Shown in pieces: positions 2,784 through 47,764 of a stretch of 64,000 nt of DNA; the stretch's first letter is position 1; each line of letters opens with the position of its first letter. The stretch lies in the sequence record MK327931.1. One strand, 5' to 3'. The notes beneath the pieces are model-generated. The model saw only the letters and a list, made by a program, of their open reading frames with translations, made no database searches and had not been told where the DNA came from. Position numbers and translations under genes: made by a program. The stretch is from Escherichia phage vB_EcoM_G17.

Positions 2784-2799
2784 GTATATTTCCTCGTTT

Positions 2800-2838
2800 A
2801 GTTAAGATAAAAGAAGGATACCATTAGGCATCCTTCTT
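2800..2838 (-). terminator. weak terminator-like imperfect hairpin after ATPase gene
   Basis: AAGAAGGATACC..GGCATCCTTCTT imperfect stem, T-rich tail on minus strand. Confidence 0.35.
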
Positions 2839-2857
2839 GTCAACAACTCTTTGTTAA

Positions 2858-4183
2858 TTAGCCAAGAGAGCGTGCTTTACGTACAAGTTCAGAGTACTTA
2901 GCGATGAAATCTTTAAACGCTGGTACATCTTTAATGGAAATCGCAACCTTATGAAGCGTGATGGTACGAATTGCCAGTACTGCCAGTTCTGCTTGAGTTG
3001 CAGAGAAGTTATGGTCTAGGAAGGTGATGAAGTTGTTACACAGTTTACCCCATTCTTCCACTGGTAGACGTTGTTCTTGCTTCTCATTGAACAGGTCGAT
3101 AATTTTATAAACCAAGTTCAGAGTGATAAAGTAGTTCGCAGAAATATCCAGCGTTGCGTCGATTTCTTTGATTTCACCAGACAGAATAGACATAGTATCT
3201 GGTAGTTTAGCAACGTTCTCAACGTACTCAATGTATTCAGTTGCAACACCTTCACCAACACGACCAGCAATCATTGCACGGAACACTTCTTTATCAATTG
3301 TCTTAGTTTTCTTGAGATCTTCGTAGCGTGCTACTGCTTCCCATGAACGTGGAGAAGTACCACCACTGTGAGAAGGATCTTGTGGACTAAGTGTGTTAAA
3401 GTACTTAGAACCAGTGTTGTTGATGAACGCAACAGTTGCTGGGTTCAAACGTTTTGCAATCGCATAATCGTTAATCCAATCTTGATGATAAGGAATCATC
3501 TCAATGTGAGTCATACGGTCACGCAGTGGTGTAGCAAGAGAGAAAGTTACACCGCCATCAGTTTCACGGTTACCTGCTGCAAGAATCAGTGCAGTCTTAG
3601 GTAGCTTCATCTCACCAACACAACGGTCGAGGATTAGCTGATAAGACGCTGCCTGAACAATAGGCATTGCAGAGTTAATTTCGTCAAACAGAATAACACC
3701 TTTCCAATCTTCGGACAATTTCAGAACTTTAGGTGCAGCCCATACTACCGCAGTTTCAGCTACATAATCTTTTGCTTCGGCAAGCTCAGATTCTTTCAGA
3801 AGAGAACCGTCAGTTTTACGGAAAAGCTTCTCTGGTACTGGAATACCGCGAAGGTCACTTGGTTCGATTTGAGACAAACGGAAATCGATAAAGTTAGTAT
3901 CTTGGTCGATTAGTTTTGCTTCAAATGCAGCCAGTTCACGGCGTAGCTGATCAGCATTTTCAGGGTCAGCTTCGATTTGTTGTTTCATGAACTCGATTTT
4001 AGCTACGTTATCTTTACGCAGTGGGTAATTTTCATCAGCGTATTGACGAGCGATTGCAGACTTACCGATACCTGGGCTACCCCAAATCATCAGGCTATCT
4101 TGAATCATGTCAGCTAGTGCCATTGCTTCTTTAGCTTTCTTTGGAGTCAGTTTAACGTTCAGGATATCGTTTTGAGTAGTCAT
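2858..4183 (-). CDS. MoxR-like AAA+ ATPase (phage CobS-like)
   Basis: Walker A GSPGIGKS, Walker B ILFDEIN, sensor AAGNRE; visibly GC-richer codons than neighbours. Confidence 0.85.
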   Translation of the reverse strand: MTTQNDILNVKLTPKKAKEAMALADMIQDSLMIWGSPGIGKSAIARQYADENYPLRKDNVAKIEFMKQQIEADPENADQLRRELAAFEAKLIDQDTNFIDFRLSQIEPSDLRGIPVPEKLFRKTDGSLLKESELAEAKDYVAETAVVWAAPKVLKLSEDWKGVILFDEINSAMPIVQAASYQLILDRCVGEMKLPKTALILAAGNRETDGGVTFSLATPLRDRMTHIEMIPYHQDWINDYAIAKRLNPATVAFINNTGSKYFNTLSPQDPSHSGGTSPRSWEAVARYEDLKKTKTIDKEVFRAMIAGRVGEGVATEYIEYVENVAKLPDTMSILSGEIKEIDATLDISANYFITLNLVYKIIDLFNEKQEQRLPVEEWGKLCNNFITFLDHNFSATQAELAVLAIRTITLHKVAISIKDVPAFKDFIAKYSELVRKARSLG

Positions 4184-4352
4184 GTATATATTTCCTTTTG
4201 TTGGATAAAATCGTTTAAGTTTCTATTATAGCCAATCCGTGGGCAAAAGTAAAGGAACTGTGTTAAAATAATTTAACTTATCAGTTCCTTTGTTACTTCA
4301 TGAATCATCCGTGTGTTTAAAAGGTAAATCTCTTTGCTGTCTTGATGTGAAC

Positions 4353-4380
4353 ATTATATCACATCGTTTCAACTTGTCAA
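4353..4380 (-). promoter_or_regulatory. sigma70-type promoter TTGACA-16-TATAAT
   Basis: Minus strand reads TTGACAAGTTGAAACGATGTGATATAAT. Confidence 0.5.
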
Positions 4381-4446
4381 TCACTTTTTTTCTTTTTTTT
4401 TCAAACTCACATCTTGTGTCGCTTGAAAACTTTATGTCTGATGCTT

Positions 4447-4474
4447 ATTGTATCACATCATTCTATCTTGTCAA
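4447..4474 (-). promoter_or_regulatory. sigma70-type promoter TTGACA-16-TACAAT (tandem with previous)
   Basis: Minus strand reads TTGACAAGATAGAATGATGTGATACAAT; shares GATGTGATA spacer core with first copy. Confidence 0.45.
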
Positions 4475-4498
4475 CATTTATTTTTAATTCATTTTTTC

Positions 4499-4879
4499 TT
4501 ACATATGAATAGAAAATAACTGTTTAAAATCGTCACAACACAATGTTAATTCAGTTATTATCATTGCATCTGTCAGATATATGTACTGACCTTCAACATA
4601 ATAAGGTGAAGTACATATTCTGTCAAGTGATGTAAACATTATAGAACTTTTAAATTCTCTTTGCAAGGGGATTTTTGTAAATTCATAAAGATTATTTTCT
4701 TTACAAATTCCATACCCAAACTTGCTAAGACGTAAACCACCGCCAGTTCTGAAATTTTCAAAAATTGACATCAGAAGCATACGGTCTGTTATTTCTGAAT
4801 CTGATTCATGTACTTCCCTAACTTTGGAAAGTACATTATTTTGATATTCAGTACTGTTATGTGATGGTTCTGGAAACAT
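4499..4879 (-). CDS. hypothetical protein (126 aa)
   Basis: ORF on minus strand, 3 nt from next gene. Confidence 0.5.
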   Translation of the reverse strand: MFPEPSHNSTEYQNNVLSKVREVHESDSEITDRMLLMSIFENFRTGGGLRLSKFGYGICKENNLYEFTKIPLQREFKSSIMFTSLDRICTSPYYVEGQYIYLTDAMIITELTLCCDDFKQLFSIHM

Positions 4880-4882
4880 ATA

Positions 4883-5278
4883 TTAGTCTCCAACAAAACC
4901 TTGACGTGCAGCATATGATGGTGCACCAGGCTCATTATAGTGTTGTACGCCTTCTTTGTCAATTGTTGGTCCCATACCTTCAGTTCCAAAACAACCTGCA
5001 ATGGCTTCCAACACTTCTTCATCAGCAACTTCAGTACTTTCATCATTATATCGAATGTCAGACAAAATGTCACAGGCTTTTTGTAGTTTATCTACAATTT
5101 CTTTTTGGTCTTCACCAGATTTAATCTTATCAACAATATCAATAAGACATTTGGTAATATCCTTAAGAACATCAACTGCTACAACATCGGATTCAACTTC
5201 AACTGAAAAACTTTCGTCTTCATCTCTTCCGGTAATTTCGTCTAACGCTTCAACTAGTTCACGATAATTATATTGCAT
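4883..5278 (-). CDS. hypothetical acidic protein (131 aa)
   Basis: ORF tightly packed; D/E-rich. Confidence 0.5.
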   Translation of the reverse strand: MQYNYRELVEALDEITGRDEDESFSVEVESDVVAVDVLKDITKCLIDIVDKIKSGEDQKEIVDKLQKACDILSDIRYNDESTEVADEEVLEAIAGCFGTEGMGPTIDKEGVQHYNEPGAPSYAARQGFVGD

Positions 5279-5279
5279 A

Positions 5280-6260
5280 TTATTTGTCTCCTAAAAATTT
5301 CTTGTATTTTTCTTGGAGACTTTCAAAAATATCTTCTACTTCTTCATCAGAATCATCTTCCAAGTCAATGTTACCTTCAGGTGAATCATCTTCTTCACTT
5401 TCATTAACATTTAGTGGGTTATCTCCTAATGCAGTGCCTGGGAATTTTGGTTCAAATTTATGAACACGATTTTCGTTCCCTTCATTATCATAATACTCAG
5501 GTTCTGGACGATTGTCAAGATCTTCATCTACAACACGTCTCCAATAAAATTGATTGCCTTTTGCAATTACAACAAAATGGTCACCTTCAACACCATTAGT
5601 CTTTAGTTGACCATCACGAACGGCATCAGCTTCTGTATCATATGGACCATAATCAGTACTGTTAGATGGTTCTTCATCTTCAGAGATACTTAGATCTGGT
5701 AGAAATTGGGTATCTTTCATTTCTTTATCGGTAGCAGGATTACCCTCTACTGAAAAATCTTCGTCTTCTTCTTCGTTAATACCAGCAAGAGATAGCATAC
5801 GACTAAAATCGAATTCTTCTTCAATAATTTCTTCTTCTTCCTCATCGTCTTCTTCAACTGATTCTAGTTGAGGTTGACCACTAAGGTCAAGAGAAAAATC
5901 TTCTTCACCTTCTACACCTGGTTCTGAAAATTCAGCATCCATACTAACTTCATCTGTGTCAGCACCAAAATCACCAACATCAGCGGAAAGATCATCAACT
6001 GCCGCTGCTAGTGGGTCTTCAACTGAAGTTTCAATTCCACCAATTTCTTCTTCAGCACCAATAGAATCGAGATCTAGTGGAGCAATAGGTGGAAGAGATG
6101 GAGTCATAGACCCCATAGATGGTACTGGAGCGGCAACTACTGGGTCTTGACGTTCAGCTTGACCAGCAAGAGCTAACATACGTGATAGAGTTTCCAAATC
6201 ATCAGATTCTAAACCTGCGATATCGATTTTAACTTGTGCTTCATTAATTTTTTTAGCCAT
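5280..6260 (-). CDS. highly acidic protein (326 aa), D/E-rich low complexity
   Basis: Long ORF; runs such as EEDDEEEEEIIEEE. Confidence 0.6.
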   Translation of the reverse strand: MAKKINEAQVKIDIAGLESDDLETLSRMLALAGQAERQDPVVAAPVPSMGSMTPSLPPIAPLDLDSIGAEEEIGGIETSVEDPLAAAVDDLSADVGDFGADTDEVSMDAEFSEPGVEGEEDFSLDLSGQPQLESVEEDDEEEEEIIEEEFDFSRMLSLAGINEEEDEDFSVEGNPATDKEMKDTQFLPDLSISEDEEPSNSTDYGPYDTEADAVRDGQLKTNGVEGDHFVVIAKGNQFYWRRVVDEDLDNRPEPEYYDNEGNENRVHKFEPKFPGTALGDNPLNVNESEEDDSPEGNIDLEDDSDEEVEDIFESLQEKYKKFLGDK

Positions 6261-6282
6261 TTTAAATAAATCCTTTTAGTTA

Positions 6283-7800
6283 TCAATCATTATTATTTAA
6301 TGATTTTAAAATTTGCACTGTTTCATCCTTTTTACCTGAAAGTAAAATGTCAGCAGCAAGTAGAGAAACCTCATCACCACGAGTTAGTAGTACTGTGATT
6401 TTTTTAGCATAAGGTGACTCTTTAATTTTAGAAGCTAATGATTGTACATCATCACCAGCAATTGTTTCAGATTTAGTTTCTGGTTCAGAAACTTCGTCTG
6501 GTTTTTGTTCAGATTCTGGTTCTTTCTTAGGTTCTTCTTTTGATTGAATTTGCTCAGTACCAGAGTCTACTTCAGGTGTTTCATCACTTTTAACTTCTTT
6601 ATCTTGTTCATATTTGGCAAGTAATTTAGCAGCAGTTGCTTTTGGTATAAACTTACCATCAGCACTAATGAATCTGTCACCACCAACATACGAATATTCT
6701 TTGCCTTGTTTGGATTTAACTTTTGTACCGATTTTCATAGCACCGGAATTGTTATGACGGAAAATATCACGCTGTGCTGCTCGTTCAACACTTTTAGAAG
6801 CACTTGTGTTAAGTTGCTTTTTACTTTCGATATCATACCACAAGTTATTTTTCTTAGCGTATGTTTTTCCTTTAGAAGAAGTCATTCTATAACCGTCAGG
6901 AACAGTAATGCTTTCAAATTCTTCAATTTCTTCATCTGCTTCATTAATTGATTCTTTAGTTGCAAATACTGGCTGTTTAGCAGGGTGTGAAGCTTTATGT
7001 GGCTTTTCACCTGAACCAAAACGTTGCTCACTATGTTCTTGTTCACCCGTTAATGTAGGAAAATCACTTGGGTTATTCTTAACAAATTGCTGATATGCAT
7101 TAATAATTGCATGTGCATTTTGTTCTGGAATTACTACATTACCATCATTATCACAAAATTCTTTACCATTCCACTCACAACGTGTATTGCCTTGAACTAA
7201 GGTTGATTTGATTGGAATTAGTTTATTTTTAGAAGCTAACTGACGAGCAATACGCATACCTTCATCTGATAGTTTACGGGTCATTGCTGGATCAACTGCT
7301 CGTCCTGATTTCATATCAACAAAACGGTGATTCTTTGGCACAAATTTAAAACCACTTACTTCCATACCTGCTGGAATTGATATATCATCAGCATATGGTG
7401 GAAGAATGTAAAATTTTAATGCATTCCATTCTTTTTGTAGTGTTTCTTTAGAAACATTATATACTCGATGATCATCTGCCATTAATTCAGTGATGAATTC
7501 ACTTTCAGTTAATAGAATTCCATCTTTTGAATTGAAACGGTTTTCACCAATAAATGTACACTCTTTACCTTCAACAATATATTTGTTACCAATCTTATAT
7601 TCATTTGAAGCTAGATTGTGCTCGACAATCTGTTGTCGAGCACTTGCGTACATGGATGGGTATTTTCTAGGGTCTACCATTAACATATTATTGTCATTGA
7701 ACCAGAATCCTTCAAGAAATACATATTTTGCACCAGTATGTGACGTATATACATATCCATTAGGAACTGTGGTAGTTTCAGTACTGAAAAAATTATCCAT
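6283..7800 (-). CDS. hypothetical protein (505 aa)
   Basis: Long ORF, minus strand, no motif recognised. Confidence 0.6.
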   Translation of the reverse strand: MDNFFSTETTTVPNGYVYTSHTGAKYVFLEGFWFNDNNMLMVDPRKYPSMYASARQQIVEHNLASNEYKIGNKYIVEGKECTFIGENRFNSKDGILLTESEFITELMADDHRVYNVSKETLQKEWNALKFYILPPYADDISIPAGMEVSGFKFVPKNHRFVDMKSGRAVDPAMTRKLSDEGMRIARQLASKNKLIPIKSTLVQGNTRCEWNGKEFCDNDGNVVIPEQNAHAIINAYQQFVKNNPSDFPTLTGEQEHSEQRFGSGEKPHKASHPAKQPVFATKESINEADEEIEEFESITVPDGYRMTSSKGKTYAKKNNLWYDIESKKQLNTSASKSVERAAQRDIFRHNNSGAMKIGTKVKSKQGKEYSYVGGDRFISADGKFIPKATAAKLLAKYEQDKEVKSDETPEVDSGTEQIQSKEEPKKEPESEQKPDEVSEPETKSETIAGDDVQSLASKIKESPYAKKITVLLTRGDEVSLLAADILLSGKKDETVQILKSLNNND

Positions 7801-34074: not shown

Positions 34075-36864
34075 TTATAAATCACGGAAACGATTTGGTG
34101 TGTTTAAGCGGTACATTGAGTATAATCCCAATCCACGCATAATCTCACCTGCCCAGAAACCAAAAAACATACCATTATCAGTACCTTCTCTAACTGCTGG
34201 ACTCCATGAACCATTCATTGGAGAACCTGGACTTACAATAACATAGTTCTTTTGAAGTTCGAGAACTAAGTTATCAGCGAGTGTTGTTAGACCTTCTATT
34301 TTACATCCAGCCAATCCAGCAGCACAAGCCCCAGCTAACCACAACCCACACATATGACCTGTAAAGTCCCAATCTGGACCTTCAACTGTGCCATCTTTAT
34401 TGAAGATTGTTGGTGAACGACCATCATTATCTTTTTGAAATTGAATTAAAAAGTGAATCCAATTCTCACAAAATTCAACAAGATCTGCTGGTGGTTCAAT
34501 TCCTCTCTCTGCGAGTTCTTGCCATGCTCTGGCAGCCCCAAAGAACGCACGTGGTTCATACCCACTCCATGCTTGATCACCCCAATGTAGCATAGTAAAT
34601 GTATCTGGTTCACCATATTTTAAGTTATCCCAGCGGTTCCAAACATATGCTTGTGCACATGGACCAACAGTACCGAATTGTTGAGTAAACCATGTTTGAG
34701 AATCTTTCATAAAGCTTAACATGTTGCCTAAACGTGTGTTATCAACTGGTTGGTCTTTAAAACAATATATCACAGGATATTGATAACCTGGATACGGTAA
34801 ACCACGCCATCCTGAATACTGGTTCGCATACGGGTCAGTGATGTTAGAAAATGGTATTGTTCCTGGTGTGTAATGCAATGAGTTTAACAAATAATCCTTG
34901 ATTACACAATCCCCTAACTGTGCAGTATATGGTGATTCACCTGCAATTGTTATTGAAAATGTCATAGTATAGTCATCACCGTCAGCATCCGTGTATAATT
35001 CTGGAATGTCATTAATACAATACCAATCAATTATTGCAGCAACACCATCTACTGGGGTTGTATCAGGTAAAATAGTAATATCTTCTAGTTCACTATAAAC
35101 TGGTGCATCTGGTCTTGGGTCAGAACTTGGATGATTTGGCTGATACCCAGATAAACGTAATGTATCGGAACTTAGTGTGATTGTAGTCCATTCCCCGTGT
35201 GTTGCAGGAATCATCCACCACCATCTCCAACCATTATCATCTACAATTCTTATATTGTAATCATCTTCATATGAACGATAGGTAAAAGATTTAACTTCAG
35301 ACTTATTTGTTGCTAATAGCCAAAATCCAATAACAGCACCATCATCTTCACCACAAACTAACTGATTAATGGTATCGCGGCGTGTAACTAATATATCAGT
35401 ACTATATATCATTTCGGACGTAGCTGCACCATAAGGAACAACAATTCTACTATCAGCAATTATATAAGGGGAACCATCTGCTTTCTTTTCTCTAACAAAT
35501 GCACTTAAAGGTGTTAATGAATGTGTGATATTTTGGTCTTTACTTTCCGGTAAGCCACAACGATAACGAACAACATCATGGTCATTTTTTGTTTTTGACA
35601 ATTCCAGTACTGGTTTAAATGATAACGGCTTACCATCATCACATACACCACCATAGTCTACAAGTAATTTAGAATCAGCATTGACCCTGAACCAAATAGC
35701 TTGTTGTTCCATAGTACTTTGTGCACTTTGGTCTTGCCTGATAGTAATATATCCTAGAGAATTTCTACCAAACTTAGCAATAGCATCACTAGGATAAAAA
35801 TATTCATAGGAAATACCATCAGTGAATGGTGTGGTTACAATTGTACTTTGTCTGAAAAATTTATCTCTGGAGTCAATATCACCATAAGCATAACACGTTA
35901 GTAGTGAACATTTCCAACCCAAATAATGTTTTCTTTCTTTTGTTATTTTATATAACAAATAAGAAGCATCACTAAACCATAATTCTGCATCTGATGCGTT
36001 ATCAGCAAATTCCAAATCAATTGGAACATGAAGAGGGCGGTTGTGTTGCATTTCATTTCGTTGAATTATCACACCACCATATTCTACTGGTTGACGATTT
36101 GCAAAATTTAATTTATATACACCATTAATTGTTGTATTCTTTAATTGAACAGTTCCTTTTTCCGATTCGTCAAAACCTTCTGCTAAAATATTACCATCCC
36201 AGTCGATTTTTCTACCCATGAAATCGATAATCCAGTCAACATCATATTGTTCACCTGGTGTATCCCAATCAACACTACCATCTGGTAATAATGCTTTTAC
36301 TGACGCATTTATTTGGTTCCATGCTAAAGCACCTTTGAATGCAAATGTTACTTTATCCAAGAACTGACCATAATAAGGTGCACCATGTGGTATTTTACAT
36401 TGTCCATTTGTAAATGTAAATTCTACACCCTTGAAACCACCATGTGTAGGCCATCCATCATCAGCTAAAGGCCAGTTAGCCAATATAGGTTCTTTGGCAT
36501 TAACTATCCAGTTACATTGTAGTGGTGTAGGTGGATCTGGTAATTCACGTCCAGCATAAAAGTACTGATGATATGCGTCCCAATACCACTTTGCCTTATC
36601 TAAAAACATTGGATCATTTGTTGCCAGATACGCATAAATGTATCCTAAAATTAATAGACTTTGACCTTCTGTTGTCCCGTCACCGTTTGGTTGACCTTCC
36701 ATTGCAGAATAGTTAATAAAATGACGGTTGTTCGCCAAAACACCCTGATTATTCACCACATAATGTTGTACTGTTGGATCTATAGTATCACCAGTATTTC
36801 TTTCAATAAACTTATGATGCCCATAAAGAAGTTGTACTATATTATCAATATTATTGTTTAACAT
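34075..36864 (-). CDS. large Trp/aromatic-rich protein (929 aa), candidate carbohydrate-active tailspike/depolymerase
   Basis: Long ORF; Trp, Tyr, Gly and Pro enriched; composition unlike neighbours; last gene of nucleotidyltransferase operon. Confidence 0.45.
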   Translation of the reverse strand: MLNNNIDNIVQLLYGHHKFIERNTGDTIDPTVQHYVVNNQGVLANNRHFINYSAMEGQPNGDGTTEGQSLLILGYIYAYLATNDPMFLDKAKWYWDAYHQYFYAGRELPDPPTPLQCNWIVNAKEPILANWPLADDGWPTHGGFKGVEFTFTNGQCKIPHGAPYYGQFLDKVTFAFKGALAWNQINASVKALLPDGSVDWDTPGEQYDVDWIIDFMGRKIDWDGNILAEGFDESEKGTVQLKNTTINGVYKLNFANRQPVEYGGVIIQRNEMQHNRPLHVPIDLEFADNASDAELWFSDASYLLYKITKERKHYLGWKCSLLTCYAYGDIDSRDKFFRQSTIVTTPFTDGISYEYFYPSDAIAKFGRNSLGYITIRQDQSAQSTMEQQAIWFRVNADSKLLVDYGGVCDDGKPLSFKPVLELSKTKNDHDVVRYRCGLPESKDQNITHSLTPLSAFVREKKADGSPYIIADSRIVVPYGAATSEMIYSTDILVTRRDTINQLVCGEDDGAVIGFWLLATNKSEVKSFTYRSYEDDYNIRIVDDNGWRWWWMIPATHGEWTTITLSSDTLRLSGYQPNHPSSDPRPDAPVYSELEDITILPDTTPVDGVAAIIDWYCINDIPELYTDADGDDYTMTFSITIAGESPYTAQLGDCVIKDYLLNSLHYTPGTIPFSNITDPYANQYSGWRGLPYPGYQYPVIYCFKDQPVDNTRLGNMLSFMKDSQTWFTQQFGTVGPCAQAYVWNRWDNLKYGEPDTFTMLHWGDQAWSGYEPRAFFGAARAWQELAERGIEPPADLVEFCENWIHFLIQFQKDNDGRSPTIFNKDGTVEGPDWDFTGHMCGLWLAGACAAGLAGCKIEGLTTLADNLVLELQKNYVIVSPGSPMNGSWSPAVREGTDNGMFFGFWAGEIMRGLGLYSMYRLNTPNRFRDL

Positions 36865-36865
36865 G

Positions 36866-37402
36866 TCATACTCCTGCTCTAATCAATGCACCGTACCATG
36901 TAACTCCTTTATCGTATGTTTCTAATGAAATAATATCTTTTTCACCAATTTCATAAGAAAGAACAACTGGTCTATTATATGACCATTTAACATTAGATCC
37001 CCAATTAACGAGGTTAGACCCTGTTTGCTGAGTTAATAGGATAGTAATTGAATAAACTTCAGTAGGAGCAGCACCAATAGCAATAGTGGTATTTCTGTCA
37101 GATAAATTAATATTAAAAACTGTATTACCTGATAGGGGATTAATTAAAATATTATTAGAACTCAATACATTATATAATTTGTTACTAGCACTATCATACA
37201 ATGTTACCCATTCTGTTTCATGATTCTCATTAGTAGCTTTAGCTTTTATTTTTACATTATTTTCGGAAGAAGTCATTCCAGTCCAGCCAGAAATAATAAA
37301 AGAACTGTTTTTATTTGTTCCAAATGATGCAATTACTGAATCACTAAGAGAACTATCTTCACCGTCAATAGATCCGAGTACTGACAATGTTAAAACCATC
37401 AT
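36866..37402 (-). CDS. hypothetical protein (178 aa), possibly the C-terminal part of a frameshift-split gene
   Basis: Overlaps 37365..37565 in another frame across an A5 run. Confidence 0.4.
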   Translation of the reverse strand: MMVLTLSVLGSIDGEDSSLSDSVIASFGTNKNSSFIISGWTGMTSSENNVKIKAKATNENHETEWVTLYDSASNKLYNVLSSNNILINPLSGNTVFNINLSDRNTTIAIGAAPTEVYSITILLTQQTGSNLVNWGSNVKWSYNRPVVLSYEIGEKDIISLETYDKGVTWYGALIRAGV

Positions 37403-37565
37403 TTTTAATGTCTACACCAGTTGCACCTGAAAAATTATTTTGAAATTTAATAACTCCGGTAGTGTGGATATCTGTGAAAATTTGTTGTGCCATACTTAAT
37501 CCTTGCGTTAATTTATATTGAGTATTTATTGAGTATAATGGCATTTTTAGTACCATTATACTCAT
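37365..37565 (-). CDS. hypothetical protein (66 aa), possibly the N-terminal part of a frameshift-split gene
   Basis: Starts just after nucleotidyltransferase stop; ends inside overlap with 36866..37402. Confidence 0.35.
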   Translation of the reverse strand: MSIMVLKMPLYSINTQYKLTQGLSMAQQIFTDIHTTGVIKFQNNFSGATGVDIKNDGFNIVSTRIY

Positions 37566-39203: not shown

Positions 39204-39713
39204 TTAACCACCATACTTTGACTTGTATGTTTCAAGTGATAAAGATATACGATTTTGCTTTTTAATTCTTTCATCAATATCCTTTGAATTCTTCACACTT
39301 CGGTATACGTCAGCTAATAAATTATAATCTTCTTTATTTGAGCTATGCTGTGTCCAACCTATGTCTGTTTTAATACGAACATTTGCTTTATTTGACGAGT
39401 AAAAGAAACTGAAACCATTTGACCCATCAAAAATATCAAAAGTATCTACCCAATCACCATAAGGAAAACTCATCGGGACTGACTCGTGGTCGATTGTGAT
39501 ATCCGATAAATTTTTTGAACAGTACTTCGCAAAGTGATAAACAATTGGATCACATTTAGATAATTCATATTTGTATTCAATGATAGTTTTTCTATTAGCA
39601 TCATTGATAGCATATTCTTTCATCAATGGGCTTTTTTTGATGATAAGAGTCCACAGAAACGATTCTAATCCGGTTTCATCAACTTTTTGTTTCTTTTTGA
39701 AAAATGAAATCAT
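39204..39713 (-). CDS. hypothetical protein, tandem paralog 3 of 3
   Basis: Shared motif DANRKTIIEYKYELSK with two upstream genes. Confidence 0.55.
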   Translation of the reverse strand: MISFFKKKQKVDETGLESFLWTLIIKKSPLMKEYAINDANRKTIIEYKYELSKCDPIVYHFAKYCSKNLSDITIDHESVPMSFPYGDWVDTFDIFDGSNGFSFFYSSNKANVRIKTDIGWTQHSSNKEDYNLLADVYRSVKNSKDIDERIKKQNRISLSLETYKSKYGG

Positions 39714-40231
39714 TTATATAAACCCTTAATTTTCTGTCTATTATGTATATCATTTTGCTGGATTTTCAATTTAGTAAGGTTGTTTCTTACACCTTCAACT
39801 CCACGCATTATTTGTAACATAATTAGTGATTCGTCATATGTTAGTACATTGCTATTATTATCGATATATACTTTCACTCCACTTTCAAGATAATCATTTT
39901 CTTTGGAGTTAAAGTTTCTAATAGCAAACTTAACGCCATTTGATGTATCACTGAAAACATATCGTTCCGCACCGTAGAATGTTTTTCCACGAAATAAACC
40001 GCCGTCTTCCCACTTCCAACGACTAGATTCATAATCATTAACGTAATCAATGATTAAAGAAAGTAAAGGGTGTTTGCTCAATTTATATTTTGCATCTAAC
40101 AGGATACGTCTATCATTATCTGTGGTGATAATATCCTTTAGTGAGTAGCTTTTAGATATAATTTTAAAGATAATTTCATGCCAAATTAAAGTACTGTTTT
40201 GTTTTCCAACTGATCCAAAAAACATATCCAT
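39710..40231 (-). CDS. hypothetical protein, tandem paralog 2 of 3
   Basis: Shared motif DNDRRILLDAKYKLSK. Confidence 0.55.
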   Translation of the reverse strand: MDMFFGSVGKQNSTLIWHEIIFKIISKSYSLKDIITTDNDRRILLDAKYKLSKHPLLSLIIDYVNDYESSRWKWEDGGLFRGKTFYGAERYVFSDTSNGVKFAIRNFNSKENDYLESGVKVYIDNNSNVLTYDESLIMLQIMRGVEGVRNNLTKLKIQQNDIHNRQKIKGLYK

Positions 40232-40237
40232 TCCTCA

Positions 40238-40804
40238 TTAGTATAAATCAGTAATGTCTTTGTATGCATTAATCTGTTTTTGTTGTAATGAAAGTTCATT
40301 GAGTTTAGTTACCATTTTATCTACACCAACACGTGTATAGAAAATAATAAATGAATCTAAATTGCCTAGAGTAATTCTTGAACTGAAATTTGAAAGTTTT
40401 CTTGCATAAACATAAATTTCTTCTTCACTTGGTAAACGTTTCTCAATCGGCCAGCTTTCCACACCATTCGGCTCATAATCGATTTCAAATTCAACTCCCA
40501 TCACTGTGTCTTGAATGAGATCCGTATATGAACCACCGTAAAAATACTCTCTTGGTTTGGCTCTCCAACGAGGACTAAATGGGTCAGATGCGTATTCTTT
40601 TACAAATTTGTAAAAGGACATTTTACTGAGCATATACTTCATCTCAATTAGTGCTTTGCGGTCATCATCAGTTTTAAACTCTGCTTTGAGCGATGGACTT
40701 TTACACAGTAACTTAACTAAATTGATGTACATCTTTAATGTACGTTGTTCTTTCATTTCTTTGATTTTGTGACGTTTTGGTGGCGGTAATAAAGATTTGA
40801 CCAT
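40238..40804 (-). CDS. hypothetical protein, tandem paralog 1 of 3
   Basis: Shared motif DDDRKALIEMKYMLSK; AGGAGG RBS. Confidence 0.55.
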   Translation of the reverse strand: MVKSLLPPPKRHKIKEMKEQRTLKMYINLVKLLCKSPSLKAEFKTDDDRKALIEMKYMLSKMSFYKFVKEYASDPFSPRWRAKPREYFYGGSYTDLIQDTVMGVEFEIDYEPNGVESWPIEKRLPSEEEIYVYARKLSNFSSRITLGNLDSFIIFYTRVGVDKMVTKLNELSLQQKQINAYKDITDLY

Positions 40805-40826: not shown

Positions 40827-40855
40827 ATTATACACATAAAAGAAAAGCCCGTCAA
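40827..40855 (-). promoter_or_regulatory. sigma70-type promoter TTGACG-17-TATAAT driving the paralog/NTase/depolymerase operon
   Basis: Minus strand TTGACGGGCTTTTCTTTTATGTGTATAAT, then AGGAGG RBS and ATG at 40804. Confidence 0.5.
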
Positions 40856-40867
40856 TAGACGAGCTTT
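40837..40867 (-). terminator. terminator-like hairpin after tail-fibre-like gene (overlaps -35 of next promoter)
   Basis: GCTCGTCTATTGACGGGC then TTTTCTTTT on minus strand. Confidence 0.45.
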
Positions 40868-40871
40868 AAAT

Positions 40872-43601
40872 TTATTTCCAACGTGTACCTGGACCTGATG
40901 GTACACCAGTACTGGCAGGTATCGCTGAACCACGTTTCGTTGTACTTGGACGATATGTCAAAAAACGAGTTACTTTTTCTGTATCAATTGAAGTTATTCC
41001 TGAAGTTCCAGTAACTATCTTACCAATGTAAGTGCTAGTTAAAGATTCATCAATTGTTTCAGTACTAATAACATATGACGCTTTCTTAGTATTCCTGTTC
41101 ATTTGTATATACAAATAGAACGTAGTATTAGCTGGGTTACTTTTTACAGTACTTAAATCAACACTTTGTATAGGTAGTCTGTCGAAAATTCCACCTAAAA
41201 ACACCGGAACTTCACGTGTAAAGTACACTGAGAATCCTTGTGCAACGTCTTGTGATACTACCACAATCTTTTCTTTAACGCTACCATTTCCACTAATTAA
41301 ACCATCCATTTCAGCAGATGTTGTACCAAAAACGCTGAATACAGATTTGGTTTGATAGTCAGAATCTTGAAAATTGTAATATCCAAAACCAACACCAGGA
41401 ATAACACCATGTTGATATGCTGCACCAAGTTGGATGTAACTAGATGATAAAAAACGATTTGATGTTATGACACCATCTACTGTTTTAGCTATCATCATCT
41501 TAAATTGTGCATTACCTGGTTGTGAAAATTGATGAACAGCATCAACACCAATGTAACCAAATCCTGAATATTTTGCAACTGTTAGACCAGTACAACGTTT
41601 CATATATGCTTCAGTAATAATTCCTGTAACAGAACTAAGTGTCTCATATCTAGTACTTACCAATGTAGCTGAAGTTATGTTAGATCCAGATAATACAACA
41701 TCAACTTCGGCATAGATTGCATAACCTTGGTTATTGTTAAGATTATATGCTGAAACTACTGCAATGGATTTAGAAAAAGTATTATCAGGTACATAATATA
41801 ATACAATTTGTCCAGATAGTGTACCAACAATGCCAGAGTTTCCTAGATTAGCAAAAATATCTTGTTTTAATGATTCTAATACCGTTGGTTCTATTGTATA
41901 TGTTTCATCAAATTCTAAAGTATCTGGGTTTAATAATCCACCACTTGTTTTATATACACCTTCAATGAATGATGTTCCATAACATCTAACACTACCATCG
42001 GTATCAACAAGAGAAATCATAGCAGTGTATGTAAAATCATCACCTATTTGTTTACGATTAGATTGTGGTGCAAAACCATTTAATGTAGTATTATTTTGAA
42101 CTGAGTTATATTGATATGTTGGTTGTGAGCCTATTTCAGAAAAAACAGTATTATTATAATTATATGTTACATCATCATACGTACCAGAACATGCTAATAA
42201 TATTTTTCTATTATCGATGAAACGTACACCTAATAGGTTTGCACCAACAGCACTACCAAAAACTGGTAAAACGTTTGCATTTATAACGTTACTTGCGGAT
42301 CTAGTACTAGCAACCCATGAATCAAACGGTGTACCACTAACCTTATATCGTTGTAGACCATAAAATTCAGTTGAACTCCATCTAAATTTAGATGCAAATA
42401 CTAAACCATCTTTGGTTTGACATAAACCACCTGCGTTTCCTAATACACCAGCAGCAGTTGTCCCAGTAAAGTTGACCATATTGATTTCAAATGGGTTAGA
42501 AACTTGAAATCCATTATCATATGAAACTGTAGCAGGAGCACGAGCAGAACCATCTAGTGACATAGATTTTGAGTTTATATTATAAACAAAACTGATACCA
42601 GTACCATACACTGTTGAAATATATAAAGGTGTAACCATTCTATGGGTTGGGTATAAAGTTACACGTATTTTGGATAAATCAGTACTAACGTTTGCTTGTA
42701 TATTAAAGTCTGTATAATCCGAAAATTCTACACGTGAGACTGGTGATGTAACTTCGAATAATGAATCCGAGCTAGTACCAACACTATATAATCTATCAAA
42801 CACTCTTATGTTATTAGATGCAGAATAACTTGTATTTCGAACAGTTTGCCCTGATAATCCAGTAACTTTTGTTAATGATGCCATTGAGCTTGCTTTCACA
42901 TCACTTAGCTCTACTGTATAAATTGAAAGTGCTAATCCTAAATTAGAAACACTTTTATCTTTACACCAAATATATACTTTTGTTCCAACAATATGAGTAT
43001 ATATAGGCATATCATTACCAAAAGAAGTACTTGGTACTTTAGCATGAATATGTGATACTTCGTTGAATGTACCATTAGTTATAGTAAAAATATAATTATC
43101 TTCTGTACTTAAACATCCAAGCATTTCATAACCATTAGAGCCAATAAAATACTTAATATTCTCTGTACTACTCATAATTGAAGGTTTATACATTGAATTG
43201 GTTGAAATAACACTTTCTTGTGAAATCATGGTTATATTTCTGATTTCTCGTATAAATGAATAATAAAAACCTTTAGTACTACCATTGGTTCCGCTACGCA
43301 GAACAACGGCGGTTCCATCATCTTCAATAATTGTTGGCTGAACTACTTGGTCACTTGACATAGGTGTAGCACCTTCATACGACCCACTTACGTTTAATGG
43401 CAAGTAATCCATTTCTCCTACACGTGATATAGGCAACATATCTAAAATACTTTGAACTTCTGAACGCTTATATATTGGATATTGAACAATTCCAGTATTG
43501 GCATTCGGTGAGGTTCCATTAAAAGTACGCATAGCGTACCTTTGTCCAATTGCCAAGTTCCCAAGGATCTCGGCACTTCCTATAATTCGTTTTGATGACA
43601 T
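40872..43601 (-). CDS. large tail-fibre-like structural protein (about 909 aa from ATG at 43601), paralog of 44217..46913
   Basis: S/T/N/G-rich; N-terminal and C-terminal regions paralogous to 898-aa gene; start chosen by paralog alignment (ORF extends to 43691). Confidence 0.55.
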   Translation of the reverse strand: MSSKRIIGSAEILGNLAIGQRYAMRTFNGTSPNANTGIVQYPIYKRSEVQSILDMLPISRVGEMDYLPLNVSGSYEGATPMSSDQVVQPTIIEDDGTAVVLRSGTNGSTKGFYYSFIREIRNITMISQESVISTNSMYKPSIMSSTENIKYFIGSNGYEMLGCLSTEDNYIFTITNGTFNEVSHIHAKVPSTSFGNDMPIYTHIVGTKVYIWCKDKSVSNLGLALSIYTVELSDVKASSMASLTKVTGLSGQTVRNTSYSASNNIRVFDRLYSVGTSSDSLFEVTSPVSRVEFSDYTDFNIQANVSTDLSKIRVTLYPTHRMVTPLYISTVYGTGISFVYNINSKSMSLDGSARAPATVSYDNGFQVSNPFEINMVNFTGTTAAGVLGNAGGLCQTKDGLVFASKFRWSSTEFYGLQRYKVSGTPFDSWVASTRSASNVINANVLPVFGSAVGANLLGVRFIDNRKILLACSGTYDDVTYNYNNTVFSEIGSQPTYQYNSVQNNTTLNGFAPQSNRKQIGDDFTYTAMISLVDTDGSVRCYGTSFIEGVYKTSGGLLNPDTLEFDETYTIEPTVLESLKQDIFANLGNSGIVGTLSGQIVLYYVPDNTFSKSIAVVSAYNLNNNQGYAIYAEVDVVLSGSNITSATLVSTRYETLSSVTGIITEAYMKRCTGLTVAKYSGFGYIGVDAVHQFSQPGNAQFKMMIAKTVDGVITSNRFLSSSYIQLGAAYQHGVIPGVGFGYYNFQDSDYQTKSVFSVFGTTSAEMDGLISGNGSVKEKIVVVSQDVAQGFSVYFTREVPVFLGGIFDRLPIQSVDLSTVKSNPANTTFYLYIQMNRNTKKASYVISTETIDESLTSTYIGKIVTGTSGITSIDTEKVTRFLTYRPSTTKRGSAIPASTGVPSGPGTRWK

Positions 43602-43617
43602 CTTTCTTTTCCTTAAT

Positions 43618-44205
43618 TTACCAACCAATTGTACCAGTTTCTGATGGTTTTCCAGTACTGACTGGGAATGAAGAACCTTTTTGTGTAACACTAGGTCTAT
43701 ATGTACTAAATCTGGATACTTTATTAATGTTTATATTTGTAATACCACTTGTACCAACGGTCAGTGTTCCAATAAACATTATAATTTCAGATTCTTGTAT
43801 TTGTGTTGGTGATATTTTATAAATTGGTTCACCGAGAACTAACGTTGCATATACATATTGTGTTTGTGTTCCAGATGAAACAGTTGAAGCAAAAATAGAA
43901 ACTGCTGGAAATTTATAAAGATAACCACCAATAAATGATGGTATCTGTCTATTAAATGTAAGACTATAGCCTGATGAAGTAATATTTAGACTAGCGTCAT
44001 CATACAATTCTCCGTATTGTGTAAGTGGTAATCCATTGACAATAAAGTTAACTTCATCTTTGGTAATAGAGGGGAATGTACATTCCCCATTTGAATTTGT
44101 TGGGTAATAAGTCATATTATTACCTAATACACCAAGTCCAGTACTTTTACCCTGTACTGTAACTTGTTGCATTGCCTTAAGGTCTGCTCTTATTTTAAAT
44201 GCCAT
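43618..44205 (-). CDS. small structural protein carrying the shared C-terminal module alone (195 aa)
   Basis: C-terminus TVGTSGITNININKVSRFSTYRPSVTQKGSSFPVSTGKPSETGTIGW matches C-termini of both flanking large proteins. Confidence 0.55.
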   Translation of the reverse strand: MAFKIRADLKAMQQVTVQGKSTGLGVLGNNMTYYPTNSNGECTFPSITKDEVNFIVNGLPLTQYGELYDDASLNITSSGYSLTFNRQIPSFIGGYLYKFPAVSIFASTVSSGTQTQYVYATLVLGEPIYKISPTQIQESEIIMFIGTLTVGTSGITNININKVSRFSTYRPSVTQKGSSFPVSTGKPSETGTIGW

Positions 44206-44216
44206 TATGTAATCCT

Positions 44217-46913
44217 TTACCAGTTTATGGTTCCTGTTTGTGATGGTAGACCGTAGCTAACTGGGAACGATGAACCTGCTGATTCAAGTGAAGCACCAAA
44301 TATATCTAAACGTGAACGTTTTTGTATATTAATAGTTTCGATTTGAATTGCGTTAGTTTGAATAGTACCTATCCAAAAAATATTATATGCAGTTGTTCCT
44401 GTTTCGGAAATAACATCAGTAGTTATGTAGTAGTTTGCCAACCCTTGTTCTAATTTAACATATACATAAAATGTTGTATTTGCTGGATTAGATTTTATAG
44501 TTCTCAAATCAATATTTGAAACTGGTAGTGTAAAAGACTTACCTGATAGTATAACTGGTGTTTCCTCTGTAAAATAAACAATAAACCCTTGAGCAACGTC
44601 TTGTGATACTACGTTAATTGGGCTACCTTGTGGAGTCCAGTTATTATAGTCGGCTATCGTTGTTCCATATTTTTGAAATGACATTTTATTTGTATAATCC
44701 AGTGGATCAAAAATACCAAATCCAATACCAGGCAACGCAGTGGGTTGTCTTCCTTGTTCATAACTGGCATGAGAACCAGTAATAACAAAACTTGTAAATT
44801 GTGCAGTTGATTTAGTTACATATGCTCTAAATTGATGAGTTGCTGTATTTCCTATTGTTGGATGTGTTAATGGGTCAGAACCACCAATGAAGTAGAATGA
44901 ACCACCATCATAAATTGTTAACCCAACAGAAGAAGATGCAATCGAACCATTACCATTAGGTGTAAAGTTTTCACCATATGTATTTTCTAGTACTAAACGC
45001 TTAAAGGTAATAGATGTTATATTTCCAACTCTAGTATTAACGTTAACTTCAGCAATTCTAATATAGTTTTTATAGTCATTTGTTATAGTACTCAACATAA
45101 CAAAAGCCGGAATGTCAGTTTGTTGTGGAACAAATAATGTCATATCACGATAAGCTTGTGAAGATAAGTTCCAGTCACTTAGAACTTTAGCATATTCTGT
45201 ATTTCTAAAGTTATCTAGAACTGATTGTGTAACACTAATAACACCAGTACCATTTAAGTTTTTATCATATGAAAATGATTGTGAATAACGTTGACCAACC
45301 ATAAAAATACCGCCATTAGTTGTTACAGTTGAACCTGAAATACTACTAATGAAAATTCTATTATTGGCATTATCATCTACATAACCACGTTCAGTTGTAG
45401 GTTCATAACCTTGTATGGTTCCTAAAGATAATGATTTAAATGTAAAATTAGGAGTACTTTTATGAACTGCATATGATGGTCTAAACCCACCACTACCAGA
45501 CGCACGTGAATATTGTTTAGTACTATTATCTGGTAACAACTCCACACCATTAATAAATGAACCAACTGCTGAACCAAAGGATGGTCTAACAACTCCACCT
45601 TTAAAATCAGTTGATTGTACTGCACGAACGTTAATCATACTATAAACAATTTGTATAGGAAACTTTGCTTTTTGCATAAGTAATGGTTCTGCTAAGTTTG
45701 GACACACAGTACAAAAAGCTTCACCTGAACTTAAGTAAAAATAAGAACTATAAATGTTTCTTGCATTAGCATGATTATATAATGGATCATTATTTAAAAC
45801 GTTACCTGTAGGCACTAATGCAGAACCAGTATTGGTTATAACCAATGGTGCTTGATATGAACCTATGTCATTCCCAGCGTCTAGGGTGCATTGTTTAGTA
45901 CTCATATTAAATGCAAAGCTGTAGCTATGTTGTGGTCGGGCATTATATGTCGCCATTGTAAACCATGCATCACCATTCATTCTAAAACGAAAGTTCTGTG
46001 TTCCTGGTTGCTGTGCAACATACAAATCAATGGATGTCATATAAATCCCAATACCACGTAGGTTTTGTGGTACATACACATAAGGCTTATCTGCTATATT
46101 AGTTGAAGTTACTTGATTAGTAATAACCATGTTATTCTGTGCAGAATAAGTTGTATTATAGAATGTTTTTGTAGTCCATCCTGTAATACGAGTTGCCGTA
46201 TATGTTCCATTGCTAATATTATATACAACTCGGACAACAACTAACTGTAGTTGGTTATTTTCATTAAGAACACTAAAGACATAGATTGAACCATCTTCAG
46301 CCATCATTGCAAATTCTATACCACCTTCAGGGCAAATATCTGCTTGATTTACAAAAAAACCAGTATGTAATTTATCATCTAATGTACCATTAGTAATAGA
46401 AATAAACAATCCATTAGTACTGTTAGAAGTGTCTACATATCTACCGAGTAAAATATTTGGATCAGTATTGTATAAGCCAATTGCGACGCGATTTGAACCG
46501 AAAAAACCAGGCTTGTATTGACGACTGGTGTTAATTGTACGGCTCATGTCATCAACTGATAATGCGTTAGCCAAATATGAATAATATAATCCCTCAACAC
46601 TACCGTTTGTACCACTACGTAATAATACGAGTGTACCATCGTTTTCTAATAAAATTTTATTTCTACGTTGGGACTGGTTTTCAGATGCACCATTGAAATC
46701 ACCAGATACACCAGCAGGAAGATAGTTTTGTGACCCATAATGGGAAATTGGCATCATACTGACGATATCTAGTACTTCATCTCTTGAATAAGTATCTAGC
46801 TCCATATTGCCATTAGCATCAAATACTTGATCATTGATACCTTGTATTGTTCTTTTACCATTAACTGTCACATTATGTGTGACATCCAAGCCACCATATA
46901 TTTTCTTTGACAT
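44217..46913 (-). CDS. large tail-fibre-like structural protein (898 aa), paralog of 40872..43601
   Basis: Shared segments VVSQDVAQGF, TIKSNPANTTFY, PISHYG..YLP; TATAAATA motif upstream. Confidence 0.55.
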   Translation of the reverse strand: MSKKIYGGLDVTHNVTVNGKRTIQGINDQVFDANGNMELDTYSRDEVLDIVSMMPISHYGSQNYLPAGVSGDFNGASENQSQRRNKILLENDGTLVLLRSGTNGSVEGLYYSYLANALSVDDMSRTINTSRQYKPGFFGSNRVAIGLYNTDPNILLGRYVDTSNSTNGLFISITNGTLDDKLHTGFFVNQADICPEGGIEFAMMAEDGSIYVFSVLNENNQLQLVVVRVVYNISNGTYTATRITGWTTKTFYNTTYSAQNNMVITNQVTSTNIADKPYVYVPQNLRGIGIYMTSIDLYVAQQPGTQNFRFRMNGDAWFTMATYNARPQHSYSFAFNMSTKQCTLDAGNDIGSYQAPLVITNTGSALVPTGNVLNNDPLYNHANARNIYSSYFYLSSGEAFCTVCPNLAEPLLMQKAKFPIQIVYSMINVRAVQSTDFKGGVVRPSFGSAVGSFINGVELLPDNSTKQYSRASGSGGFRPSYAVHKSTPNFTFKSLSLGTIQGYEPTTERGYVDDNANNRIFISSISGSTVTTNGGIFMVGQRYSQSFSYDKNLNGTGVISVTQSVLDNFRNTEYAKVLSDWNLSSQAYRDMTLFVPQQTDIPAFVMLSTITNDYKNYIRIAEVNVNTRVGNITSITFKRLVLENTYGENFTPNGNGSIASSSVGLTIYDGGSFYFIGGSDPLTHPTIGNTATHQFRAYVTKSTAQFTSFVITGSHASYEQGRQPTALPGIGFGIFDPLDYTNKMSFQKYGTTIADYNNWTPQGSPINVVSQDVAQGFIVYFTEETPVILSGKSFTLPVSNIDLRTIKSNPANTTFYVYVKLEQGLANYYITTDVISETGTTAYNIFWIGTIQTNAIQIETINIQKRSRLDIFGASLESAGSSFPVSYGLPSQTGTINW

Positions 46914-46947: not shown

Positions 46948-46955
46948 TATTTATA
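46948..46955 (-). promoter_or_regulatory. T4-type late promoter motif TATAAATA
   Basis: Exact TATAAATA on minus strand about 35 nt upstream of tail-fibre-like gene start. Confidence 0.4.
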
Positions 46956-46962
46956 TACATAA

Positions 46963-46986
46963 CAAAAAAGCACCCAATGGGTGCTT
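46963..46986 (-). terminator. rho-independent terminator after nrdG
   Basis: Hairpin AGCACCC-ATT-GGGTGCT followed by TTTTTTG on minus strand. Confidence 0.6.
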
Positions 46987-46989
46987 ATG

Positions 46990-47460
46990 TTAAAAATCTT
47001 TATTTTTATATAGTATTCTTTGATTATTTGAACCACGGAAAGGTAATTTTAAATTCTTTTCGGACTCGATAAACTTACCATCAACTAATACATCTAAGTA
47101 CTGAAGTATATCTTTAGCATGATTTTTCATAATCTCATCTAAAGTATACCCACTCCAGCACCAAATAGTTTTACTAGGATAAGTTTCTTTAACTACTTTG
47201 CATAGATTTAAAACTTCATCTATATTCTTTTTCATTAATGGATCGCCGCCTAGAAGTGACAAACCACTAACATATGGTTTTTTTAGTTCCTGTAGTATAA
47301 TCTCAACTGTTTCAGTACTGAACTCTTGTCCACTTCGGTAGTCCCATGCTTCTTCATTGAAGCAACCATCACATCCGTGCGAACACCCACTAACAAATAA
47401 AGAGCAGCGAACGCCCTCTCCATTTACTAAATCATCCTTGATTATCGTCTGGTAATTCAT
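46990..47460 (-). CDS. nrdG: anaerobic ribonucleotide reductase activating protein (radical SAM)
   Basis: Radical SAM cluster motif CSHGCDGC; 156 aa; adjacent to nrdD. Confidence 0.85.
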   Translation of the reverse strand: MNYQTIIKDDLVNGEGVRCSLFVSGCSHGCDGCFNEEAWDYRSGQEFSTETVEIILQELKKPYVSGLSLLGGDPLMKKNIDEVLNLCKVVKETYPSKTIWCWSGYTLDEIMKNHAKDILQYLDVLVDGKFIESEKNLKLPFRGSNNQRILYKNKDF

Positions 47461-47764
47461 CTAATATTGCACTCACTATTTCGACAAGAACATCGCCGTG
47501 ACATGATTTTGGTTTACAGAAACAACCAAGGCGTTTCCCTGCGAGTTCAAGTAATTCATCAATCTTAACTTCTCCACAAGAAATACGTTCAATAATGTAT
47601 TCTCTGAATTTTTCAATTGATTCTTCTCTTGTACTAACAATGAATTCGGCTTTAGTTTGTTTATCTTTAATATGGGTAAATGGGTTTCCCCATTTAGACC
47701 CACGTCCAATATACACATCATACGGTTCTTTGTATTTGTTAACCACAATTGGCTTTAAATCCAT
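47432..47764 (-). CDS. DUF4326-like protein (110 aa)
   Basis: YIGRGSKWGNPF and LGCFCKPKSCHGDVL motifs as recalled for DUF4326. Confidence 0.55.
   Translation of the reverse strand: MDLKPIVVNKYKEPYDVYIGRGSKWGNPFTHIKDKQTKAEFIVSTREESIEKFREYIIERISCGEVKIDELLELAGKRLGCFCKPKSCHGDVLVEIVSAILDELPDDNQG

Follow-up and report, generated by a model that had tools for sequence, protein, structure and literature searches.

We analyzed a stretch of 64,000 nucleotides of Escherichia phage vB_EcoM_G17 (sequence record MK327931.1; here, the window) and focused on three tandem genes, A, B, and C, which a first-pass annotation of the same DNA had singled out as structural genes sharing one C-terminal module. On balance, we lean towards the trio being baseplate-attached host-recognition proteins, with B as a derivative that lacks the body of its two long neighbors; that the proteins trimerize, dock on the baseplate, and bind a receptor is inferred, as is the part that B plays. 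Host recognition by the 350-kb Rak2-like coliphages (121Q, PBECO4, phAPEC6, and Sharanji) is scarcely characterized, and several of these phages have been proposed for therapy. The 6-kb trio region is 100% identical to that of Escherichia phage Sharanji and 99.8% identical to that of phage 121Q, both ∼350-kb Rak2-like myoviruses of the genus Asteriusvirus, and the three 121Q counterparts (gp499, gp500, and gp501) are each annotated as hypothetical.

All three open reading frames (ORFs) were found where the first-pass annotation had placed them, on the minus strand (Table 1). A C-terminal module of ∼120 amino acids (aa) is common to all three (BLASTP E values of 1e-16 to 7e-24), and the proposed similarity held when the pairwise alignments were run, at levels far beyond chance for B against C (43% identity over 120 aa, E value of 7e-24) and for B against A (36% identity over 125 aa, E value of 1e-16). 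The motif string first quoted for this module fits B and C well and A only partially. The large N-terminal regions had been described as diverged, but A and C align end to end, from residue 2 through the last residue (27% identity, E value of 2e-61), and residues 91 to 120 are among the best conserved between the paralogs. Likewise, B had been taken for essentially the module alone, but it also retains an N-terminal segment, as its first ∼70 to 85 residues match the N termini of A (E value of 7e-7), of C (1e-3), and of CBB_148, a protein of Pectobacterium phage CBB (1e-9). Since both ends of B match the long paralogs, B is made up of the two end pieces, N-terminal segment and C-terminal module, without the center, and it lacks roughly residues 75 to 773 of the long form (∼700 to 730 central residues).

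The homology of A, B, and C makes them paralogs, in agreement with the duplication proposed at first. At the DNA level, only short stretches of 23 to 70 nucleotides (nt) at 70 to 86% identity are left between the modules, at the most conserved motifs, and the duplication is therefore old and without recent gene conversion. Recent gene conversion between the modules was considered and ruled out by these short DNA matches and by the greater similarity seen among orthologs than among paralogs.

The origin of B can be traced by comparison with other genera. Three full-length genes, CBB_147, CBB_148, and CBB_149 (902, 916, and 916 aa), stand in this slot just after nrdG in phage CBB (Mimasvirus), and in Yersinia phage fHe-Yen9-04 (Eneladusvirus) the slot contains g137 to g139 (928, 895, and 946 aa), annotated as “minor tail protein.” These triplets, together with GAP32_143 to GAP32_145, are direct orthologs of the trio in the same position after nrdG. 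The best reciprocal matches pair A with CBB_147 (46% identity), C with CBB_149 (36% identity, E value of 2e-172), and B with CBB_148 at both ends of B, and a neighbor-joining tree of the module, built without bootstrap, resolves three orthologous clades in which the B sequences cluster with CBB_148. All three genes are full length in CBB, GAP32, and fHe-Yen9-04, whereas the middle gene has the 195-aa form in Asteriusvirus and in Salmonella phage 7t3; the long-mini-long order recurs in Asteriusvirus phage ph0011 as well as in 7t3. The most parsimonious history is a full-length triplet followed by an in-frame internal deletion in the middle gene, and by these comparisons B descends from a full-length middle paralog that lost its interior and is not a free-standing C-terminal module. 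This natural contrast between long-long-long and long-mini-long genera bears on the separate contributions of body and anchor.

Conservation along the proteins follows the same division. Among A orthologs, it reaches 0.60 to 0.75 for residues 1 to 120 and 750 to 898 and falls to 0.34 to 0.60, mostly below 0.5, in the center, and the comparison between paralogs gives the same pattern of conserved ends and a variable center. Across lineages, the last ∼38 residues are the best conserved (0.71 to 0.89 identity) and the center is the least (0.32 to 0.54). The reversed polarity that the first-pass annotation had seen, with a conserved C terminus and a variable N terminus, is thus probably only apparent, since both termini are conserved and it is the center that varies.

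An AlphaFold2 monomer model of A, built from 39 sequences, had a mean predicted local distance difference test score (pLDDT) of 84.6. Residues ∼70 to 770 are mostly above a pLDDT of 90 and are modeled as wholly β, with ∼51 strands, while residues 770 to 868 are of intermediate confidence and residues 1 to 69 and 869 to 898 are unstructured in the monomer. A Foldseek search with this model returned tandem-propeller and propeller proteins (lectins, sialidases, and glycoside hydrolases), a likeness of the center at the level of the fold only, with 5 to 12% identity; the closest structural neighbors of the center are the AAL fucose lectin, GH130 enzymes, sialidases, and the propeller of the phage phi11 receptor-binding protein (RBP). 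Because of the ∼51 strands, the center would comprise about a dozen blades, most simply arranged as two propellers. The proteins had been called tail-fiber-like, but in place of the elongated shaft, N-terminal anchor, and variable C-terminal tip of a classical tail fiber, the ∼700-aa center is predicted to be a compact, globular all-β propeller body.

The module itself gave strong structural matches solely to the trimeric “shoulder” domains of phage RBPs, tail fibers, and the type VI secretion protein TssK, with the HFTV1 fiber gp42, TssK (three entries), a phi812 baseplate protein, and Mtd among its neighbors. The shoulder domain, which these proteins have in common, is made of two 4-stranded sheets and a long helix; it builds the trimer and docks on Dit in phages p2 and 1358 or on TssG in the case of TssK (PMC7291167), and the long-tail-fiber shoulder of phage A-1(L) anchors to wedge proteins (PMC10966104). 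The trio module is predicted to share this fold, with two 4-stranded antiparallel sheets plus a long helix in the model. In short relatives of 225 to 245 aa from other phage lineages and in Erwinia phage RAY gp18, a helix and an LPxS(R/Q)(F/Y)G motif stand immediately before the sandwich; their counterparts in A and C are found at residues ∼44 to 60, ∼700 residues upstream of it. Since the helix and motif adjoin the sandwich in the short relatives, the propeller body reads as an insertion into one conserved domain, which would explain the apparent reverse polarity. B, in turn, may be the shoulder-like domain with the propeller insertion removed.

We propose the following arrangement. A, B, and C would form one late-transcribed cassette of peripheral tail or baseplate proteins. 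Each long member would carry a conserved N-terminal segment (short strands, a helix, and the sequence P-[IL]-S-x-[YV]-G), a propeller body of ∼700 aa, and a C-terminal sandwich with a tail of ∼35 aa, the N-terminal segment and the sandwich with its tail together resembling a shoulder domain of two β-sheets and a helix. The propellers, inserted in this shoulder-like domain, would be exposed and fast evolving and would bind, and possibly cleave, a host surface glycan, and the trimer would be held on the particle by the conserved ends. B has lost the propeller body in frame; it would keep the docking and trimerization domain, and it probably still fills its structural site. A tentative extension, which we regard as possible at best, is that the N- and C-terminal segments make up a single RBP/TssK-type shoulder domain split by a double β-propeller and that the family, with at least 549 clusters, is an unrecognized set of peripheral baseplate receptor-binding proteins in Rak2-like and phiKZ-like jumbo phages. 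The fold assignment in itself would tie a large jumbo-phage family lacking annotation to the RBP/TssK shoulder, in an arrangement (C-terminal or split, with the propeller body nested inside) not described for that domain. In a more radical version of the extension, the three paralogs, each with a long-kept copy of the shared domain, would form one A:B:C heterotrimer with Asteriusvirus B as its propeller-less subunit.

Searches for relatives place the trio in a large and poorly described family. A and C match phrog_3573 (E values of 1e-274 and 2e-266) and B matches phrog_26864 (E value of 4e-115), and through the C-terminal module A, B, and C cross-match each other's PHROG families (3573, 7449, and 26864, jumbo-phage families of unknown function). 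Pfam gave no match for A, B, or C at E values up to 1, and Caudo_TAP and Peptidase_S74 were thus not found, nor did Pfam and NCBIfam scans of the trio, eight unusual architectures, and distant homologs return any family. A profile of B matched 549 cluster representatives (clusters at 50% identity), 331 of them at E values of ≤1e-10. Among the best 147 of these 549 matches, 52 proteins have ≤260 aa and 73 have 701 to 1,050 aa, and the module is C-terminal in 136 (∼93%) and internal in a few longer proteins. Among phiKZ-like and other jumbo phages, tandem arrays of “tail proteins” with the module occur in Erwinia phage RAY (gp18 to gp20), an EL-like Pseudomonas phage, Klebsiella phage Miami (gp56 to gp58), and N1M2 (gp116 and gp117), and the arrays in RAY, the EL-like phage, and Miami adjoin a baseplate or baseplate assembly gene. 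Homology to the baseplate-periphery propeller family gp131 to gp135 of phiKZ was not supported, as the trio profiles match nothing in the 120- to 170-kb region of phiKZ, which contains gp131 to gp135 and gp145/146, and no sequence match was found in the PDB.

Some members of the family are more elaborate at the N terminus. The longer proteins of phage RAY (piece positions 1929 to 5420) and five short relatives carry an NPH..T..Q.G motif in the N-terminal region upstream of the helix, and residues 128 to 157 of RAY gp19 show a weak match (E value of 7e-4) to the solved chain 9d93, a “tail collar fibre gp4.” These lineages may therefore have a fiber-like N-terminal anchor before the shoulder-like unit.

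Parts of this picture were already available, namely, the paralogy of CBB_147 to CBB_149 (CBB paper supplement), the mass-spectrometric detection of relatives, and the “minor tail protein” labels in some genomes, and the literature on Sharanji, phAPEC6, CBB, JP4/fEgEco12, Eneladusvirus, and Agricanvirus states no function for the trio genes; nor do the papers on the CBB, GAP32, and fHe-Yen9-04 orthologs propose a fold for them. Within the literature that we searched, the apparently new points are the assignment of a fold, its interpretation as a split domain, the finding that the 195-aa protein arose by deletion and has been conserved, the hypervariability of the locus, and its positional equivalence to the RaK2 spike cluster.

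The initial description of the genes as structural is borne out by mass spectrometry of orthologs. The A ortholog of phAPEC6, gp323c (98.6 kDa), was identified from 4 peptides, at a coverage of 5.6%, in virions that had been purified (PMC7247149), and the middle and third paralogs of GAP32, GAP32_144 and GAP32_145, were detected in GAP32 virions (CBB paper supplement S5). In the wider family, RAY gp18 and the Deimos-Minion gp19 homolog have also been detected by mass spectrometry. The phAPEC6 annotation (MK817115) has no coding sequence for the B and C orthologs, just a spurious 114-nt ORF (piece positions 3001 to 6345, equal to window positions 40872 to 44216). The published phAPEC6 virion analysis probably could not report these two proteins because they have no annotated coding sequence.

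The cassette is hypervariable between otherwise similar genomes. Between Sharanji and ph0011, the flanking proteins (nrdD, gp497, nrdG, and gp502 to gp506) are 81 to 98% identical, compared to 54% for A, 44% for B, and 51% for C. Against phAPEC6, the synonymous divergence (dS) is 0.51 for A (0.20 for its C-terminal module), 0.02 for B, and 0.085 for C, and this unevenness suggests recombination near the A/B junction, at the 3′ end of A, with A alleles swapped among Asteriusviruses. The host-range diversification proposed by the first-pass annotation is consistent with a cassette so variable between otherwise near-identical genomes. Being hypervariable, bounded by terminators, and placed in the slot of the RaK2 depolymerase spikes, the trio makes a clear-cut host-range cassette candidate.

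Predicted transcription signals frame the three genes as one unit (Table 1), with each gene preceded by its own Shine-Dalgarno sequence and only 11 to 16 nt between neighbors. A T4-type late unit has TATAAATA at about −10, ahead of its first gene; here, this late-promoter-like motif stands ∼30 nt before the ATG of A, and it occurs in 2 copies in 64 kb versus 10.5 expected. Its core, ATAAATA, is depleted ∼4-fold (10 copies in the window versus 41 expected), lies mostly 30 to 50 nt upstream of start codons, and is on the coding strand in 8 of the 10 copies, with minus-strand sites at 8400, 8925, 11794, 12636, 15710, 37523, 46948, and 56357. This distribution is in keeping with a T4-like late-promoter motif and its avoidance at other sites, and the CBB paper had already noted ATAAATA upstream of structural genes and proposed it as their late promoter.

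Several observations weigh against the reading of the trio as docked host-recognition proteins. First, in all known shoulder proteins, such as the RBPs of the lactococcal phages p2 and 1358 and TssK, the shoulder stands at the N terminus, ahead of a neck and a head, whereas the trio module is C-terminal, or apparently split by ∼700 aa, and its sandwich is followed only by the conserved tail of ∼35 aa. SPP1 gp22 is a stand-alone protein with the shoulder fold. The receptor-binding part of the long tail fiber gp34 of the Anabaena myophage A-1(L) is a fibrous C-terminal arm; in the trio, globular propellers inside or N-terminal to the shoulder-like domain would take this role. Second, no sequence homology between the trio and shoulder or TssK proteins was detectable in the PDB, Pfam, or NCBIfam, and searches of all PDB chains with A, with B, with the family profile, and with two distant homologs gave no meaningful tie to a solved structure. 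We therefore do not file the module as a member of the shoulder family, because neither its position nor its sequence agrees with such membership. The shoulder assignment comes from an AlphaFold2 monomer built on a 15-sequence alignment, and the N-terminal segment and C-terminal tail are of low confidence in both monomer models, which makes their packing into one domain a matter of deduction; such low-confidence termini are compatible with, and do not prove, partner-dependent folding. No carbohydrate-binding or catalytic site was identified in the trio, nor were Asp-boxes found even with a loose pattern. The mass spectrometry signals are weak, as in the phAPEC6 case, and CBB_147 to CBB_149 were not detected in CBB virions. 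Finally, the N terminus, and not the module, could be the anchor, because longer relatives carry an extra fiber-like region ahead of the unit.

The alternative that stands up best concerns what the propeller bodies do. They could be enzymes (glycosidase, lyase, or phosphorylase-like depolymerases) instead of passive, lectin-like binders and the functional counterpart of the RaK2 depolymerase tailspikes, an assignment that we consider unlikely without dismissing it. Structural neighbors of the bodies include GH130, GH43/32/62, sialidases, and ulvan lyases, and polar residues of the center are kept across the paralogs (E90, D92, R99, Y111, H183, R309, R509, and D739). The cassette also sits where the related jumbo phage RaK2 has its branched tailspike and tail-fiber cluster, ORF525 to ORF534, directly after nrdD/nrdG. 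This multigene host-recognition set is not homologous to the trio, as a trio profile search of the RaK2 tailspike region found no homolog, and its members are annotated as tail fiber, tailspike, or lyase-like and not as propellers. The narrower assignment as a sialidase or Asp-box glycosidase was not supported, with no Asp-box (S-x-D-x-G-x-T-W) and no match to a Pfam glycoside hydrolase family.

A second alternative, to which we give somewhat less credence, would place the trio in the “hairy” appendages, as whiskers of the sheath, collar, or capsid, where the proteins would serve as the base of a hair or its terminal knob. Both phAPEC6 and CBB have hair-like fibers whose genes are not assigned, the hairs sit at three annular positions of the tail, and those of CBB end in small globules; the low mass spectrometry abundance of the A ortholog is compatible with a hair as well as with a baseplate location. 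However, a globular propeller protein of ∼100 kDa cannot make a hair shaft of 119 nm, GAP32 has the trio yet is not described as hairy, the module resembles domains that dock on baseplates, and homologous arrays in other jumbo phages adjoin baseplate assembly genes.

The remaining alternatives concern B. It could act in trans on the assembly of A and C, in the manner of a tail-fiber assembly protein, or join them in mixed trimers, with its copy of the shared domain templating or capping trimerization and with no site of its own, which seems to us quite improbable. Its size and its place between two large genes are typical for fiber assembly genes, it covaries with A and C upon cassette exchange, and its module is the fastest evolving of the three. 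On the other hand, B resembles no known Tfa or intramolecular-chaperone family, the full-length lineage orthologous to it is a virion component (GAP32_144), and the module of each paralog has been distinct since before the genera split, which fits separate sites at least as well. B does not have the look of a decayed gene. Its orthologs keep a length of 190 to 202 aa down to 45% identity, its ORF is intact in phAPEC6, ph0011, and 7t3 (as is that of C in phAPEC6, with 99.5% and 99.2% aa identity for B and C there), and 21 B-like cluster representatives are found among the best 147 profile matches. In the comparison with phAPEC6, A, B, and C have ratios of nonsynonymous to synonymous divergence (dN/dS) of 0.04, 0.10, and 0.05, respectively, and against distant orthologs the proportion of nonsynonymous differences in B is lower than that of synonymous differences (pN < pS). 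That B is a decaying, functionless remnant of the middle paralog, as its loss of ∼80% of the ancestral gene might suggest, is a pseudogene reading disfavored by its kept length (∼195 aa in lineages down to 44 to 45% identity), its intact ORF with its own Shine-Dalgarno sequence, and these dN/dS and pN values, and we give it almost no weight.

Table 1. Positions of the trio genes, their parts, and the flanking transcription signals in the window
Feature	Position	Strand	Description
Intrinsic-terminator-like hairpin	46968-46986	minus	Right after nrdG; 8-bp stem with 5 GC pairs, then TTTTGTT; upstream unit boundary
TATAAATA	46948-46955	minus	T4-type late-promoter-like motif, ∼30 nt upstream of the A ATG
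Gene A	44217-46913	minus	898 aa; 121Q gp499; full-length paralog; orthologs phAPEC6 gp323c, CBB_147, fHe-Yen9-04 g137
A, residues 1-75	46689-46913	minus	N-terminal segment, conserved, with short strands, a helix (44-53), and a PISHYG motif; AlphaFold2 monomer confidence low
A, residues 76-770	44604-46688	minus	Variable all-β center, ∼51 strands, β-propeller type, probably two propellers
A, residues 771-898	44217-44603	minus	Shared C-terminal module: β-sandwich and conserved tail of ∼35 aa, final residue W
Gene B	43618-44205	minus	195 aa; 121Q gp500; N-terminal segment (1-75) joined straight to the module (76-195)
Gene C	40872-43601	minus	909 aa from ATG 43601; 121Q gp501; full-length paralog; orthologs CBB_149, GAP32_145, fHe-Yen9-04 g139
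C, N-terminal segment	43368-43601	minus	
C, residues 79-785	41247-43367	minus	Center
C, residues 786-909	40872-41246	minus	Module
Strong intrinsic-terminator-like hairpin	40844-40867	minus	5 nt past the C stop; 10-bp stem with 5 GC pairs, T-run; downstream unit boundary

The longest ORF of C runs from a GTG (40872 to 43691), and the true start is likely the ATG at 43601, preferred because of its AAGGAAA Shine-Dalgarno sequence and its alignment with the N termini of A and CBB_149. The GTG start overlaps the end of B and has nothing in its favor, and the start annotated in 121Q (43532) would lose 23 residues that can be aligned with the paralogs. The record of Salmonella phage 7t3 also gives its C counterpart the long, overlapping start.

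Directly downstream of the trio (39204 to 40804) lie three small tandem paralogs, 121Q gp502 to gp504 (188, 173, and 169 aa; PHROG 18641/7868), which are 87 to 96% identical in ph0011 and only 23 to 28% identical in 7t3. On the upstream side, a 110-aa gene between nrdD and nrdG (47432 to 47764), which the ph0011 annotation assigns to the DUF4326 type, shares 29 nt with the start of nrdG (46990 to 47460). The nrdD-nrdG interval of ph0011, 7t3, and fHe-Yen9-04 holds an additional “pyruvate formate-lyase” gene of ∼120 aa, which is apparently missing from the window.

A second late-type unit is found at 34075 to 37529, where a hairpin after a nucleotidyltransferase gene is followed by ATAAATA (37523 to 37529) and then by gp507, gp508, and gp509. 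The 178-aa gp508 matches tail-fiber PHROGs, and gp509 (929 aa, tail PHROG 2871) was detected in virions of phAPEC6, where it is named gp314c. The gp510 homolog of ph0011 comes directly after the nucleotidyltransferase gene, and some Asteriusvirus genomes therefore have the gp507-to-gp509 tail-gene cassette while others lack it.

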